Of a stretch of 64,000 nucleotides of DNA, positions 1,144-60,075 are shown in pieces. The stretch comes from Octopus vulgaris. Its lineage: Eukaryota. The DNA lies in contig OX597818.1 of NCBI GenBank assembly GCA_951406725.2, positions 144,460,001-144,524,000 on the forward strand. Direction: 5' to 3'. Position numbers and translations under genes: made by a program. Positions within the stretch are counted from its first letter, which is position 1; the number at the start of each line of letters is the position of its first letter. The notes beneath the pieces are model-generated. The model saw only the letters and a list, made by a program, of their open reading frames with translations, had not been told where the DNA came from and ran no database searches.

Positions 1144-3100
1144 TTTTGGTTGTAAATCCTTCTTTAATTTAGGATGCCTGAGTTCGTAGATGTTGAGTTG
1201 TAGGGCACGTTGAAAGCATATGTCAATTAGTGAAGGTGGGTAGTTCCTGGTGATGAGCGTATCCTTTAGTTCATGTAATCCTGGGTCCCTGGTGCTTGCA
1301 TTAGAAACTATAGTACATATCCTTTTTGCTAGGTTGAAGGGTATATTCATTCTGGTGTGTCTGGGGTGGCATGAGTTGAATGGCAGATATTGCTTGGAGT
1401 CCGTGGGTTTATAGTATATACCTGTTTCTATTACGTTGTTAGATTTCTTGATGAGGATGTCAAGGAAGGGAAGTTATTGATGGCTATATTCCATTGTGAA
1501 TTGAATGTTTACATCAAGTCCATTTATAAGCGCTTGAAATTCTTTAAGTCTCTATATTTTCATGCCAAAGAATAAAACAGTCATCCAGGTATCTCTTCCA
1601 GTTATTTTCTATGTAGAGGGAGAATGGGCTACCCTATTTTTCTGGAACCTTATGATAAAGACTAATTTCTAGATATCCCACGACTAGGTTAGCAAATGAG
1701 GGGGCCATTCTTGTACCCATTGCAGTCTCCGATTTTTGTCGGTAGAAGTTGTCTTTGAAGACAAAGTAGTTATTCTCCAAGATAAATTTTAACCCTTCTA
1801 TCACAAATTCTTTTTTGATGCGATGTGGGAGTTCATTGGTGTAATTCTTTAACCAGAATTGAATTGCCTCTATTCCTAGGTTGTAGGGGATATTGGAATA
1901 CAGGTTGACTACATCGAAGGGTACTAGTAGGGTGATTTTGTTTATTGTTTCAGGAAGGTGATTGAGCATATCCAGGTCATCCCTTATGTAGCTTTTGACA
2001 TGTTTGAGGAATGGCTTGAAGAGAGTATCTAAAAAGTTACTGAGGCGGTGGGTTTCGCATGCAGGACTTGCTATTATAGGTCTCAATTTGAGGGACTTTG
2101 ATTATTATGTCTGTGGCTATCCTGTATGCGTTACTTATTTTCTCACTTTTGTGTATCTTGGGAATACCATAGATTTGACTGGATTTACTTATGAAATTGG
2201 TCATATAGTCATATTCCTTGTCAGTGAGCCCTTCTGCTGACTGTAGGTTTGGGCCTTTTCATAATATGTTGTGTCTTCTAATATGGATAGTACTAGAGTT
2301 ATATAGTATACCGTGTCAATTAAGACAACTGCACTCCCTTTATCAGCTTCTTTGATTGTTATTGTTTTGTCATCTTTTAATTTGTTCAGCTCAGCCCATT
2401 CTTTTTCGCTGAAATTTGGTTTGTGTTTTTGTTTGTGCATATGTTGATATGGGTAATTTGAGATGTATTCACAGAAATGATCAAGAGTTTTGTTCTTACC
2501 TTTTGAGGGGGTGTAGTTACTTTTTATTTCAGACCAATGATTCATCCTCATTGTATTTGTCGTATTGCTCCTCAGCAAGTTGTAATTTTCTACAGAATTC
2601 CGTGATGTCCTCTTTCATTTCATTGTTGTTGGGGGCCTTGTGGGTTGGGTGTAAACTCGAGCCCTTTGGAAAGTATATTGATTTGGTTTGCTGTTAGTTC
2701 TTTGTGAGTTAGATTGATAATTTTTATCACTTTTGGTTCCTCCTGTCTGTTTGGTGCAATCTCGTGTCTCTGTGTTTGCGTATTGGGTCTAAAAAGTGAT
2801 TGCGGTGGTTGGGACAGTAGCTGTTATGTAGTTGTTCTTTATTGTTGTGGGGTGTTGTGTTGTGATTTATGATGTGGGTTCTTGGAATGATATTGAAAGG
2901 TGTGTCTTGATATCCCATGTTTGGATGTGGTGTTCTAGGGGGCTGTCATTGGTAATTATTGCGTGTGGTACAGGTTTGTTGTGCATGGTTGTTTAGTAGA
3001 TTGCTGGAACGAAAAATTCGTTGGTAACTCTTTATGGCGAGGAGGAGGTTGCTATGTCTATCTTGCGGGTAGTGCTGTTTGAAGTTGGAGTACTCCTGAT
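1141..3100 (-). mobile_element. Penelope-like retroelement, frameshifted RT; GIY-YIG end absent (stops at a microsatellite)
   Basis: ORF pieces ITIKEADKGSAVV (2201-2578), RPIIA...FDVVNLYSNIP...TAMGTRMAPSFANL (1634-2086), WKRYLDD near 1580-1601 and NIPFNLAKRICTIVS...NYPPSLI (1045-1350) are characteristic of Penelope RT. Confidence 0.9.
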
Positions 3101-3200
3101 ATTGTGTATATATATATATAATATCGGGAGTACTCCAACTTAACAGAGAAAAGAAAAATCACTACCCACTATCTGCAAGATAGACATAGCAACCTCCCCC
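3040..3200. repeat. Imperfect inverted repeat around (TA)n at the 5' end of the Penelope element
   Basis: GGAGGTTGCTATGTCTATCTTGC...AAGTTGGAGTACTCCTGATATT mirrored by AATATCGGGAGTACTCCAACTT...GCAAGATAGACATAGCAACCTCC. Confidence 0.85.
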
Positions 3201-3204
3201 ACCC

Positions 3205-3297
3205 CTGAGGCTATAGTAGAAGACACTTGCCCAAGGTGCCACGCAGTGGGAATGAACCCGGAACCATGTAGTTAGTAAGCAAGCTACTTACCACACA
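3205..3297 (-). mobile_element. tRNA-derived SINE fragment
   Basis: Reverse complement matches the head of the SINE at 20083 (GTGTGGTAAGTAGCTTGCTTAC...GGCACCTTGGGCAAGTGTCTTCTACTATAGCC). Confidence 0.8.
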
Positions 3298-4095: not shown

Positions 4096-4190
4096 ATTCT
4101 CAGCCTGATGAATAGCTTAGCTGAGTACACCTTGTTGAGTAACTCTTACGCCAGAGGATGAGCTAGCTAAGAAACATATGTAGCCAGAAT
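4096..4190 (+). ncRNA. Candidate type I hammerhead ribozyme (Penelope-type, palindromic stem III)
   Basis: ATTCTCAGC-CTGATGA(4105-4111)-A-TAGCTTAGCT...AGCTAGCTA-A-GAAAC-ATAT-GTA(4180-4182)-GCCAGAAT. Core intact, stem II present, stem III ACATATGT self-complementary, stem I imperfect. Confidence 0.7.
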
Positions 4191-26875: not shown

Positions 26876-26919
<44 letters not shown>

Positions 26920-27198
26920 ACAAACCAAAGAAAAGAAATCCTTCAAAGGGGTATATCAAACCTTCAATCATTCAATTCACTGTTACTTCCATTGAATACC
27001 ATATAAATGTTGGTATAATTCAATAATAAAGATAAATTATAAATAGAGATATTCTATTGACAATACAATAATTTATTTATATTACAATATTACATTAAAT
27101 ACTATGAATATAATATATAACATAATATTATATAAATAATTATAAAAACTGTCAAAGGCCAACAAATTGTTTTGACTTTAAATACTTTTTCTGATATA

Positions 27199-28474
27199 TT
27201 GCGTTGGCAACTAAGTTCCTGCTGTTTTTTTTTTTAATTTTTGGAATTTATTGCATTTTTAAATTTTGGAATCTGTTTTTTTCAAGAATTCTATTTTTGA
27301 ATCATTTTGGAATCTATTTTGATTTTTTTCTAGTTAATTTTAGTTAATTTTTGTTTATTATCAGATCATTAAAATGGAATGTCAAGTTAAGAAAAACAAG
27401 CATTTTTGACACCTCTTTCTTTTCGCTTTTAATCAAAGTTCTAAGGCCGCAAAAGCTGCTCACGACATTTGTTCTGTGTATGGAGAGGGTGTCATAGCTG
27501 AAAGAACTGCTCGTGATGGGTATGCCAAGTTCAAAAATGGAAATTTTGACCTCAAAGACGCACCTTGTTCTGGCCGTCCAGTTGAGTTCAATGAAGAGCA
27601 ATTAAACCAACTTTTGCACGAAAATTCTTGTCAAATGACAAGGGAATTGGCAGAGAAAATGGAATGCTCCCACACTGCTATAGAGAAGCATCTTCACTTG
27701 ATGGGAAAGGTTCAGAAGTGTGGAGCATGGGTTCCGCATGCTTTAAGTGACAAAAACAAAAATCAACGAGCCACAATCTCTGCTGGTTTGCTTACTCGTC
27801 ACCGCTCAACTCATGGACTTGAGCAACAATTTCTTTACCAAATCATTACTGGTGATGAAAAATGGTGCCTGTACATCAATATGAAGCAGCGTAAGGAATG
27901 GCTTAGCCCCGGTAAACAAGCGACACCGCGCGTGAAACAAGATCTTCATCTGTGCAAAACGATGTTGTGCATATGGTGGGACTGGGAAGGGATTATCCAT
28001 TACGAATTGCTTGAACGGAACCAAACGGTCAACGCGGAGCTCTATGTTCAACGGATGGAATGACTCAACACGGCTATTCAAGAAAAAAGACCTAATCAGC
28101 AGTATGGAATTCTTCTGCTGCATGACAATGCTTGCCCTCATATTGCCAATATGACCAATGAAGCCATTTAAATGCATGGCTGGGAAGTGCTGCCACACCC
28201 ACCATACTCTCCTGATGTGGCACCAACGGATTTCCACCTCTTTTGATCTCTTTCAAATGCTATGCACGGAATTTCATTCAATACTGATGCAGAATTGAAA
28301 GCTTGGTTGGATCATTTCTACCAACGAGGTATTGAAAATCTTGTTGAACGTTGGGAAGAAGTTGTAAACAACAAAGGTGAATACATTATTGATTAATTAG
28401 TTGTTATTTTTTTTATTAAACCTTTTAAAAAAATTAATTAAAAAAAAACAGTGGGAACTTAGTTGCCAACTCAA
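27199..28474 (+). mobile_element. Near full-length mariner (DD34D) with TIRs and TA target duplication
   Basis: TIRs TTGCGTTGGCAACTAAGTTCC / GGAACTTAGTTGCCAACTCAA. TA at 27197-27198 and 28475-28476. Confidence 0.95.
27374..28396 (+). pseudogene. Mariner transposase pseudogene
   Basis: WVPHAL, IITGDEKW, LLHDNACPH and HPPYSPDVAPTDFHLF motifs, with in-frame stops and a frameshift. Confidence 0.95.
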
Positions 28475-28591
28475 TACATAATCACAGTTCTATTATATAT
28501 AAGTCACTTCAAGGTCCATCGGTTCAAAAAGACAAAATTCCTTCTGAATCCAGCTGTCCTTCCAGACGGAATTTTGTCTTTCTGAACCAAT

Positions 28592-28676
28592 GGACCCTGA
28601 AGTGACTTATATATAATAGAACTGTAATTATGTATATCAGAAAAAATATATATATGTCAAAACAATTTGTTGGCCT
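28592..28676 (+). other. Decayed hammerhead-like motif in the fold-back arm (mirror copy in the left arm)
   Basis: GGACC-CTGAAGT-GAC...GTC-AAAAC-AATTT-GTT-GGCC. Layout of stems I-III kept, core positions 9 and 12 non-consensus. Confidence 0.5.
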
Positions 28677-28798
28677 TTTATGGTTTTTATAATTATTTAT
28701 ATAATATTATGTTATGTTATATATTATATTCATACTATTTAATGTAATATTGTAATATAAATAAATTATTGACTGTTAATAGAATATCTCTATATTTA

Positions 28799-28849
<51 letters not shown>

Positions 28850-30175: not shown

Positions 30176-30915
30176 CACATATTACTAATGTAATATGGAG
30201 CTCTGCTACACACTCTTTTTCATATCATTAGCAGAGAGATAAATCTCTGCTATCTCCAGTGCTGAGGCCACCAGATCACATATTTTCAACTTACCTTGGT
30301 CTTGTTATTGATGACTGTTTGACTGCTAGAAGTAGCAGTAACTCGTCTGCCTGCCAGCAATATATAGGAAAACAGTGCCAGAACAGGTGCTGGTATCATA
30401 ATTAGCCAGTGAGCTTGTTAAAAATATATATGTTATTGGCAGAGGGAGCATTAGTACTGAGAGGTAATATTTATCCCCACTTAAGTATGGATGCTTTGCT
30501 AGAACAAACTATATTGTGGTAGATATCATGAGAGAAACTTTCATATACGGCCTCTGTCACTAATATATATTTTTTAACAAGCTCACCAGCACCTGTTCTG
30601 GCACTGTTTTTCCATATATTGCTGGCAAGGAGTTGAGTTGCTGCTATCTCTAGCAGTTGAGTGGCCATCATTGACAAGACCAAGGAAAGTCAAAATCACA
30701 TGATCTGGTAGGCTCAGTGTTGGAGATCGCAGGGATTTTATCTCCCCACTAATTATACAAGCAACAGCGCATGTTGCACCAAAAGCTAATATGAGGGTTT
30801 CTCTCATGGTATCTATTGCAGTATAGTTTGTTCTAATAGAACATCTACGTTTAAGTGGGGATAAATTTAACCTCTTGGTATTAATAATGCCTCTATTGCT
30901 AACATATATTTTTAA
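30176..30915. repeat. Old inverted duplication with permuted block order
   Basis: 30238-30430 is inversely repeated at 30561-30742, and 30416-30545 at ~30790-30915. Confidence 0.8.
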
Positions 30916-31339
30916 TAAAATCTCAGAATATACAATACAAGTACAAGGCAAAACAATATAGACAATAGAGATACAACAATAGATAATATAGATACAAGAT
31001 AAGGCCATACAATATAAACAGAACATAAAGCCATACAAAACTTTACCCTTGGCAGAAAAATATATTATGTAAATATCCACAGTAGAATGGGTGTAATTGT
31101 TTGTTTTGGCACAGTACATCAAAGTGTGAATTAATATTTGTCAGTGATGTTCTTAAGGGAATTTCTATTGCTTTTATTGGTGTATAGTATTTTGTCTTCA
31201 CTGCCATTAAAGTGGAAAAGGTAAATTCACATAGATAAACAAAGAGAAAAGACAGAAGAGTTGCCATTGCTAATTCAGATAGTATTGGAAATTGATTCCA
31301 TATTCAGCCAGAAACTACTTAAGTTTGTTAATGAATATA

Positions 31340-32647
31340 TTGGTTCATCCCATAAATAATTTGGTTTTTTATACTTCTTTTATTTTTCAATGCTCTTCCA
31401 TCTATCAGGTAGACTTGCAAGGCCCCTCTTTCAAAATTCATTTGTTCATGATGAAAAATACTCCTCCAGTTCTGTTCTGACCATGTCTACAGGATTCATA
31501 TTTTTTTCCATCCAAATGATTTTGAAAACTGCAGAATAAATGATAATCAGATGGGACAATGTCTGGTGAATATGGTGGGTGGGGCATTGTTCCCCATTTA
31601 AACTGCTCCAGCCTTTGGAATGTCATCCTTGCTGTATATGACTGAGCATTATCCTGATGGAAGAACACCAATAAAAGCAATAGAAATTCATTTAAGAACA
31701 TCACTGACAAATATTAATTCACACTTTGATGTGTTGTGCCAGAACAAACAATTACACCCATTCTACTGTGGATATTTACATAATATATTTTTTATCTTGA
31801 AACCAAAGATGGCTGTTTCTTCTAGTACTGATTTAGGCCACTCAAGCTGCTTGCAGCAGATCTCCTTTGATATCATTTGGTTTGGGTTCAAAAGTTCAAA
31901 GTGGACTAAACCTTTCATATCCCACCAAACAGACAACACCTTACGAGGGTGAAGACCACCTTTAGCCTAGGGTGCTAGCGTTTCTCCTTTTCCTGCTCAC
32001 TGTCTTCAGTGCTTGACATTTTTATAGAGAATCCATTCCTCATCACCAGTCACTATTCAGTCCAAAACGGGTTCATTTGTGAGACATGACAGTAAAGAAG
32101 AGCAAACATTCACTCTCTGTGTGCAATTAGACTCGGAAAGTTTGTGAGGAACCCAATGATGCAATTTGCTGACTTTTCCAGGAGCATGTAGGTGTTGATG
32201 AATGGTTGAATGACCAAATCCAAGCTTCTCTGCTAGTTCCTCAACAGTTATAATGGGATTTTTTTCCACTAGGGTTTGTATGATGTCCTTGTTGAGCTCT
32301 ACAGATCTTCCAGGACAAGACTCGTCTTCTAGGCTGTACTTACCAGCTCGGAATATTTGGAACTGCCGTTGACACTGGCTTATTGTCCGATCCCCATATA
32401 CTGCATTAATATTCCCTGCACTTTCTGTTGCTTTGTTGCCTTTATTGAACTCATAAAACCAAATATGCTGAATATGGTCCTTTGTCACTTCCATTATTGC
32501 TTTGAAAAAATAACCTCAAAACTTGCACTAAGAATAAGGACAAGGTAAAATTACTTCTTTTATAGCAAGTTGATGCAGGTAGTTTATTCCCCTCCAACTT
32601 TTAGTTCATGCAATTGAGAAAACTGCATTATTTATGGGATGACCCAA
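31340..32647 (-). mobile_element. Mariner element (second family), decayed, with TIRs and TA duplication
   Basis: TIRs TTGGTTCATCCCATAAATAAT / ATTATTTATGGGATGACCCAA. MEVTKDHIQH...WVPHKLS and FHQDNA...HPPYSPDIVPSDYHLF. Confidence 0.93.
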
Positions 32648-34199: not shown

Positions 34200-34935
34200 C
34201 ATTTATAGAAAAATTGGTTAATGTTGACATTATTACCTGGAAACGAAATACAAAAAAAAAAAGGTGCAGAAAACGAAATTGAAAAAAAAAAGTGTAGAAA
34301 ACGAATCTGAAAGCAAAAATGTGCGGAGAGCAATGGGGAGTGGGTGGTGGTGGTGGGGGGGGGGCTTTGGAAAATTCACAAGATCCAATGTTTTTCCCTC
34401 ATAACATCTAGGAAAATGTTGTTTTTTTTTAATGAAATTTTATATAAATTCCTTTCAAATTACAATTATAAAGAAATTTGTGGTGAAAATCTTTTCTGAG
34501 AGGGTGGGGAGAGGACTTTGGAAAATTCACAAGATCCAATTTTTTTCCCTCATAACTTTGATGAAAATGGATATCTTTCTACTTCACACCCACATAGGAA
34601 ACATCGGATCTTGTGAATTTTCCAAAGTCCTCTCCCCATCTCCCCGGAAAAGATTTTCACCACAAATTTCTTTATAATCATAATCTATACTGTTTGAAAG
34701 GTATTTATATAAAATTTCATTAGGAAAAACCTATTTTACTAAAAGTGATGAAGGAAAAAACATCAGATCTTGTGAATTTTCCGAAGGCCTCCCCCCACCC
34801 CATTGCTCTCTGCACATTTTTGCTTTCAGATCCATTTTCTACACCATTTTTCACACCCACTGCACTATTTTCTTTTTGATTTTGTTTCTGGGTAATAATG
34901 TCAAAATTAACCGAAATGTTTTCTTGTGGATAAAA
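34200..34935. mobile_element. Foldback/MITE-like element with ~340-bp imperfect arms and internal subrepeats
   Basis: 34215-34545 mirrored by 34600-34912. Each arm holds two copies of (T/C)GGAAAATTCACAAGATC. Confidence 0.8.
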
Positions 34936-44342: not shown

Positions 44343-44421
<79 letters not shown>

Positions 44422-44604
44422 ATAAATATTAGGGAATAAATCCAAATTTACAGGGAAAAATCAGATTTAGATTGAATCCAATTTTATAGTAAAATATTAT
44501 ATAATATTAATTAGAGACAAAACCACTATTTTGCAAATCAAACAAAGAAAGACTTAATCCAATACATAAAAAAATTTAATATAAATTAAATAAAATTAAA
44601 TTCG

Positions 44605-44650
44605 CCACTACAATTGTTTCGTGTCTCTTCAAAGGACATTCATCAGGTGG
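44605..44650 (-). ncRNA. Minimal type I hammerhead ribozyme (mirror copy)
   Basis: Exact reverse complement of 44711-44756. Confidence 0.8.
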
Positions 44651-44710
44651 ATTTCAGATCTTCTATTCAATTTTAAGTTATAACTTAAAATTGAATAGAA
44701 GATCTGAAAT

Positions 44711-44756
44711 CCACCTGATGAATGTCCTTTGAAGAGACACGAAACAATTGTAGTGG
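44711..44756 (+). ncRNA. Minimal type I hammerhead ribozyme
   Basis: CCAC-CTGATGA-A-TGTC-CTTTGAAGA-GACA-C-GAAAC-AATT-GTA-GTGG. Intact core, stem I CCAC/GTGG, stem II TGTC/GACA, palindromic stem III ACAATTGT. Predicted cut after 44752. Confidence 0.8.
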
Positions 44757-44942
44757 CGAATTTAATTTTATTTAATTTATATTAAATTTTTTTATGTATT
44801 GGATTAAGTCTTTCTTTGTTTGATTTGCAAAATAGTGGTTTTGTCTCTAATTAATATTATATAATATTTTACTATAAAATTGGCCTAAATCTGATTTTTC
44901 CCTGTAAATTTGGATTTATTCTAATATTTATTATTATATATA

Positions 44943-59120: not shown

Positions 59121-60075
59121 TTGGGTCATCCCATAAATAATGCAGTTTTTTCAATTGCATCAACTAAAAGTTGGAGGGTAATAAGATAAATGACCTGCAT
59201 CAACTTGCTATAAAAGCAGGTAGTAATTTTACCATGTGCTTATTCTTAGTAGAAGTTTTGAAGAGTGCAGTTCGATTTTAACAGTTATTTTTTCAAAGCT
59301 AAAATGGAAGTGACAAAGCATATTCAGCATATTTTGCTTTATGAGTTCAATAAAGGCAACAATGCAATGGAAAGTGCGAGGAATATTAATGCAGTATATG
59401 GGGATTGGACAATAAGCGTAAGCCAGAGTCAACAGTGGTTCTAGAAACTACAGCCTAGAAGATGAGCCTCGCCCTGGAAGATTTGTAGAACTCAACGAGG
59501 ATGTCCTGCAAAACCTCCCATTGTAATTGTTGAGGAACTAGCAGAGAAGGTTGGATTTTGTCATTCAACCATTCACTGACACCTGTGTGCCATCGGAAAA
59601 ATCAGCAAATTGGGTTAATGGGTTTCTCACAAACTTTCCGAGTCTAATTGCGTGCAGAGAGTGAATATGTGCTCTTCTTTACTGTCATGTCTCACAAATG
59701 AACCCGTTTTGGACCAAATAGTGACTGGTGACAAGAAATGGGTTCTCTATAAAAATGTTAAGCACTGAAGACGATGGGTAGGGAAAGGAGAAACACTGGC
59801 ACCCCAGGCTAAAGAAGGTCTTCACCCATGTAAGATGTTATCTGTTTGGTGGGATATGAAAGCTTTAGTCCTCTTTGAACTTTTAAACCCAAACCAAATG
59901 ATATTAAAGGAGATCTACTGCGAGCAGCTTAAGTCAGCACTTTGGTTTCAAGACGAAAGGTGTTCTTCCATCAGGATAATGCTCAGCCACATACAGCAAG
60001 GATGACATTCCAAAGGCTAGAGCAGTTTGAATGCGAAATGATGCCCACCCCACTATATTCGCTGGACATTGCCAT
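59121..60075 (+). mobile_element. Mariner, same family as 31340-32647, 3'-truncated
   Basis: TIR TTGGGTCATCCCATAAATAATGCAG, MEVTK start, IVTGDKKW, FHQDNAQPH, PLYSLDIA. Confidence 0.92.

Follow-up and report, generated by a model that had tools for sequence, protein, structure and literature searches.

The palindrome around a 16-nt spacer at 28547-28562 of the window (the whole 64-kb stretch of Octopus vulgaris DNA that was analysed) is probably a fossil insertion of a Penelope-like element (PLE), in which two 5'-truncated 3' ends, each with a hammerhead-like motif followed by an AT-rich tail, lie head to head. In all likelihood it is an unremarkable, decayed example of a PLE structure that is already known and the components of which are in print: inverted 5'-truncated copies are described beside the 5' end of PLEs (PMC8557442), head-to-head palindromic junctions are explained as self-priming (PMC3846280) and hammerhead pairs are reported on opposite strands, 100-700 bp apart (PMC4209133). 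The first-pass annotation had argued for a recurring mechanism, which it left unnamed; it is probably the published head-to-head inverted PLE configuration. The features of the palindrome are as follows.

26879-26916, no strand: (TA)n run on the left flank, read from the sequence as a possible insertion target.
26917-27029, minus strand: one-sided stretch of 113 nt from the left arm end to the (TA)n run, either an extension of the element or host DNA.
27030-27198, minus strand: outer part of the left arm, with the 3' half of the left hammerhead-like motif (27157-27198) and an AT-rich tail.
27197-27198, no strand: left copy of the TA target duplication.
27199-28474, plus strand: mariner transposon in loop II of the left motif, with a transposase frame from 27374 containing 4 stops.
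28475-28476, no strand: right copy of the TA target duplication.
28477-28546, minus strand: inner part of the left arm, with the stem I 5' strand, the core with U3 (28512) and U9, and the stem II 5' strand.
28547-28562, no strand: unpaired axis spacer of 16 nt, with a 6-bp palindrome, CAGCTG (28551-28556), near its centre.
28563-28801, plus strand: right arm, the putative 5'-truncated 3' end of a PLE.
28592-28675, plus strand: right hammerhead-like motif.
28802-28845, no strand: (TA)n run immediately 3' of the right arm.

Excision of 27199-28476 (the mariner and one TA), the check proposed in the first-pass annotation, restored the mirror of the right arm, and alignment of the two arms, each about 245 bp long, gave 227 matches, 18 mismatches and 8 gap columns over 253 columns, confirming that the mariner arrived after the palindrome had formed. 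The motifs occupy opposite strands and read outward with their 3' ends outermost, each being followed by 130 nt of 85-86% A+T. The layout given earlier stands as written, with GGACC starting 37-38 nt from the midpoint instead of about 35 nt from the axis. The arm ends are ragged and unequal, and the (TA)n run adjoins the right arm directly but lies 113 nt off the left arm; (TA)n is plentiful across the window, the DNA of which is rich in microsatellites. No flanking direct repeat of at least 7 nt, as a target duplication, was found at the palindrome, no partner of the 113-nt stretch was found on the right side and no further copy of the arm unit was found within the 64-kb window. The 113-nt stretch contains a possible small stem-loop. 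An assembly artefact was ruled out, as had been claimed, by the 7% difference between the arms and by the presence in one of them of a mariner with its target duplication; as the mariner insertion dates the palindrome, the structure is also internally clocked.

The insert has inverted ends, a TA duplication and matches to Pfam Transposase_1 and HTH_48, and its protein is 80-89% identical to the closest proteins, one match from O. vulgaris standing at 89%. It is an inactive mariner copy with nothing unusual about it. Of its 295 scored residues, 32 depart from the majority residue among 17 close relatives; half of these changes (16/32) are of CpG type, and the non-CpG drift estimated from these residue differences is about 2.4%, which is an upper estimate. 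The inverted ends (27199-27228 and 28445-28474) differ at one site, TG versus CA, the pattern expected when a single CpG has decayed on different strands in the two ends; the observed/expected CpG ratio of the window is 0.42. A second mariner-like family is present in the window as two copies in opposite orientation, 81% identical (31840-32647 and 59121-59934).

The following features elsewhere in the window are referred to below.

44420-44933: young fold-back at 44.7 kb, with 253/253 aligned bases identical, short gaps only and a perfect centre.
4097-4190, plus strand: third hammerhead, with an intact core, C3 at 4105, a 58-nt stem-loop II, a perfectly palindromic helix III and GUA.
1156-2760, minus strand: PLE reverse transcriptase (RT) frame (match start about 2760) that ends at a microsatellite before the endonuclease, classed as Neptune-like by the Cys-rich linker seen on alignment.
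3038-3206: fold-back at the 5' end of the PLE RT frame, with arms of about 75-85 nt and a 16-nt TA/CA spacer, abutting a repeat at 3204.

Bases are given in hammerhead position numbering. The right motif, on the plus strand, has C3 at 28597, U9, A12 at 28659 and N17 at 28671, while the left motif, on the minus strand, has U3 at 28512 and likewise U9 and A12. Against the core C3-U4-G5-A6-N7-G8-A9, both arms thus carry U9 (or have lost A9) and the left arm also carries U3; against G12-A13-A14-A15.1, both carry A12. The earlier statement that the arms share non-consensus bases at U9 and A12 is therefore correct for both positions, with U3 to be added as a third deviation in the left arm. The consensus for PLE hammerheads has an extra base after A9 (PMC4209133 supplement), so that the apparent U9 could have arisen as readily by loss of A9 alone, with the extra base typical of PLE hammerheads coming next, as by substitution. 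Stem II opens with G10.1-C11.1 and has 3+8 pairs in the right arm and 5 contiguous pairs in the left, its stem-loop spanning 54-55 nt (55 in the right arm) versus 19 nt at 44.7 kb. Helix III is a 4-bp self-complementary helix with a 1-nt loop, and its intermolecular duplex has a calculated energy of -5.9 kcal/mol; the cleavage triplet, GUU, agrees with NUH. Stem I consists of 2 contiguous pairs and 2 more beyond a bulge, and the lowest-energy fold pairs this region differently. The hammerhead layout is taken as real but decayed; it shares its orientation with the 44.7 kb layout, the sequences being otherwise unrelated, much as the first-pass annotation described it. At 28646-28655 the arms are set apart by 3 substitutions and 1 indel that improve the stem II pairing of the right motif, a cluster for which a local template switch or TA slippage is a possible origin.

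The chance of meeting such a motif was assessed with dinucleotide shuffles of the right arm. A loose hammerhead descriptor was passed by 608 of 3000 shuffles and is weak evidence for a hammerhead. However, a strict descriptor comprising G10.1-C11.1 and a palindromic helix III, hallmarks named for PLE hammerheads in PMC4209133, was passed by 1 of 3000 and a Hydra-clade descriptor from the table of PMC8557442 by 3 of 10000; both strict descriptors are derived from papers yet were picked after the motif was known, which makes these rates optimistic. Over the whole window, the first of the strict descriptors found one other match, the 44.7 kb motif failing its G-C filter, and the Hydra-type descriptor found four matches, namely the right arm, both arms at 44.7 kb and the intact-core motif at 4105. 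A search with Rfam models gave no hammerhead at 28560-28720 at E<=10, a result of low power as the intact 44.7 kb motif itself scored only E=6.6, and over the whole window only miRNA-hairpin look-alikes below gathering scores were found among the 150 of 227 matches listed.

These figures bear on the possibility that the palindrome is a MITE or foldback DNA element, or a palindromic host duplication, with a chance hammerhead look-alike. Fold-backs without a convincing hammerhead do occur nearby. At 34207-34924 there is a foldback/MITE-like element with internal repeated subunits, and at 30223-30918 an older fold-back, part of which is present a third time at 30789-30918, close to a 128-nt inverted pair (31056-31183 and 31665-31792). 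A fold-back by itself is therefore not diagnostic, and not every fold-back of the window, those at 30.2-30.8 and 34.2-34.9 kb included, need be a PLE pair. The ease with which shuffles pass the loose descriptor, the deviation of 2-3 core positions, the negative Rfam result and the failure to find an ORF link also favour this explanation. However, it is unlikely in view of the rarity with which shuffles pass the strict descriptors, the match in orientation and in the 34-nt offset to the intact 44.7 kb motif, and the combination of unequal ends with no target duplication found.

Assignment to PLEs was pursued by comparison with published families and with PLE-like loci in other assemblies. From the form of helix III and the possible (TA)n target, the PLE probably belongs to the Hydra clade. 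In File S2 of PMC8557442, as counted by eye, 17 of 26 Hydra-clade rows have a helix III of 4 bp with a 1-nt loop, 10 of the 26 have U at the cleavage site and 26 of 27 Hydra families prefer (TA)n; the same file holds an Octopus bimaculoides Hydra-clade family with a 4-bp, 1-nt-loop helix III and GUU. The palindrome thus resembles Hydra-clade hammerheads such as Hydra-1_Obim and Penelope-13_HM in helix III, U cleavage site, possible (TA)n target and occurrence in Octopus, and for Penelope-13_HM a 5'-truncated inverted copy is recorded (PMC8557442 File S2). It differs from them in a core broken at positions 9 and 12 and in a stem-loop II of 54-55 nt, as opposed to the short loops of the table. 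With the inverted truncated copies or pLTRs of EN+ PLEs (PMC3846280; PMC8557442) it has in common the head-to-head arrangement, the junction palindrome, the 3' hammerhead and a possible AT-rich/(TA)n target, but here both copies are cut to about 245 bp without an ORF, the one-sided extension is 113 nt as against the 30-40-bp PLE tail, and a target duplication is not seen. The dual minimal hammerheads of PMC4209133 are likewise close, opposite-strand motifs of PLE type with G10.1-C11.1 and a self-complementary helix III, but in the palindrome the position-3 bases are 85 bp apart, less than the range given for those pairs, the motifs are decayed and one is split by a mariner.

PLEs make up 6.83% of the O. 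vulgaris genome (PMC13282606 supplement), and the closest PLE protein to the window by identity, at 77%, is from Octopus sinensis. No match at E<1 was found in the arms by tblastn with 120 Neptune-like PLE proteins, and the arms contain no ORF; short frames near the axis were considered as a coding trace and judged to be due to chance. Six short motifs, drawn from this arm and the 44.7 kb arm, had 0 matches in the consensus file of PMC8557442, and no resemblance to the arms was seen by eye in the consensus ends published for Octopus Naiad and Hydra elements. A scan of contigs in bacterial genome bins yielded 44 PLE-like loci (L001-L044), some with hammerheads and microsatellites, the ORFs of which are presumably animal contamination; blastn of the arms against these 44 loci gave nothing better than E=0.05. 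In 5 of 10 inspected loci a hammerhead lies 149-772 nt downstream of the ORF end. These five together with L013, picked by eye, formed a set of 6 PLE-linked motifs, in which helix III is palindromic in 5/6, G10.1-C11.1 is present in 3/6 and an AT-rich tail follows in 5/6 (62-79% A+T in 5 and 44% in 1). Stem-loop II measures 11-19 nt in this set, which makes the 54-55 nt of the palindrome atypical, but the motif at 4105 has 58 nt. MAFFT aligned the 6 hammerheads poorly, with 3 invariant columns. The motif at 4097-4190 lies outside any fold-back, with a TA run about 270 nt further on, and is, by its sequence, the strongest candidate that the window offers for an active PLE hammerhead with a long loop.

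It is also conceivable, but quite unlikely, that the arms are an inverted pair formed from a non-autonomous hammerhead repeat (a non-LTR retrozyme or solo pLTR) mobilised by PLE protein. The arms are indeed short, of type I motif and free of an ORF, and animal retrozymes have been argued to derive from PLE pLTRs, but according to the same source retrozymes are defined by head-to-tail tandem units (bioRxiv 10.64898/2026.07.22.740005), whereas the units here are head to head, and no other copy was found in the window.

On the preferred PLE reading, formation of the pair would begin with cleavage of a (TA)n run by the PLE endonuclease, followed by reverse transcription that started at the 3' end, traversed the hammerhead and halted about 35-50 nt past it. 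This event would also have produced the second arm. In one route the cDNA would fold back at a short inverted repeat and prime its own extension; in the other, synthesis would be primed from the opposite DNA end and the two cDNA ends would anneal. Later the mariner inserted into loop II of the left motif, at a TA, the arms drifted by about 3% each with no sign of homogenisation, and the motifs would be non-cleaving today. Both routes fit, and the 6-bp palindrome of the spacer suits either; fold-back self-priming is slightly favoured over two-ended priming. A PLE protein was found to cleave and extend both strands in vitro, and hammerhead mutants were without effect on insertion in the PLE protein assay (PMC11167929), so that a donor with a dead ribozyme is no obstacle. 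Palindromes lie just 5' of the ORFs in L005 and L008 (L005:64-327 being a fold-back), and together with the PLE fold-back at 3038-3206 they are circumstantial evidence on formation.

Both routes copy one donor, which accounts for U9 (or the loss of A9), and probably for A12, being common to the arms; one variant template is the simplest and most likely account of the shared variants. The arms of the 44.7 kb fold-back, their core being intact, each have A-C at 10.1-11.1 and so likewise have a template variant in common. A12 is the expected product of CpG decay at C11.1-G12. Independent CpG decay of G12 in both arms is unlikely, at about 3-5%, and would leave U9 unexplained. The first-pass annotation had offered either one variant template or later homogenisation, and only the former is upheld. 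That the arms were homogenised after insertion, by gene conversion or hairpin repair, is very unlikely. Inverted repeats are capable of conversion, and the cluster at 28646-28655, which improves the right stem II, could reflect local template switching; however, under homogenisation the inner arms, which are still adjacent, should match better than the outer arms separated by the mariner, and this is not seen (5/70 versus 10/159 mismatches; Fisher p=0.78). Nor is the per-arm drift of 3.3% below the non-CpG estimate for the mariner of about 2.4%; by these sequence estimates, the drift is in keeping with arms that pre-date the mariner by a little and have not been evened out since.

Both motifs are predicted to be dead, very probably so, given A12, their location on opposite strands and their burial in a hairpin. 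G12A lowers hammerhead cleavage about a million-fold (PMC2553840). In the predicted plus-strand transcript a 70-bp hairpin buries the 5' half of the right motif (-98.9 kcal/mol, z -14.9), and in the isolated motif the hammerhead-shaped fold is predicted to lie 5 kcal/mol above the lowest-energy fold; the left motif is interrupted by 1.28 kb. A cis dimer of the two motifs was considered and rejected, as they are on opposite strands and no single transcript holds both. That U9/A12 is a functional, family-wide hammerhead variant, or that the hairpin is regulatory and under selection, is scarcely credible: U9 and A12 are able to pair, lengthening stem II in the predicted fold, and natural core variants exist (PMC3088659; U3-A8 in PMC4209133), but G12 is the general base (PMC2553840), A12 is the product expected of CpG decay, half of the amino-acid differences of the mariner being of CpG type, and the left copy is split by the mariner and also carries U3.

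The distance from C3 to the inner arm end is 34 nt both here and in the 44.7 kb fold-back (n=2), raising the possibility, tentative and rather doubtful, that the fold-back point is programmed and not random, with C3 34 nt off in two unrelated PLE families. Reverse transcription would then proceed from an internal start off the RNA 5' end, giving a strong-stop-like cDNA, and two such products would be joined head to head. Against a programmed point stand the sample of two, the distances from C3 to the true midpoint of the two fold-backs (34 and about 42), the fact that only hammerhead-retaining copies get noticed, and the PLE at 3.1 kb, which folds back far from any hammerhead; the offset is a lead only. 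No statement of a fixed axis-to-hammerhead distance was found in the literature searched, on which subscription papers and supplements may bear.

As it stands, the palindrome carries little weight, adding a further dead example to a PLE structure already known, and its value is that of a data point on the open question of how PLEs make inverted ends. If the fold-back axis kept a constant distance from the hammerhead in many copies and families, this would discriminate between self-priming and two-ended priming. Were the fold-back point programmed, ORF-less inverted hammerhead pairs would be a regular class of by-product that maps PLE transcript starts, and the self-priming and two-ended inverted-pLTR models would become testable on thousands of copies.
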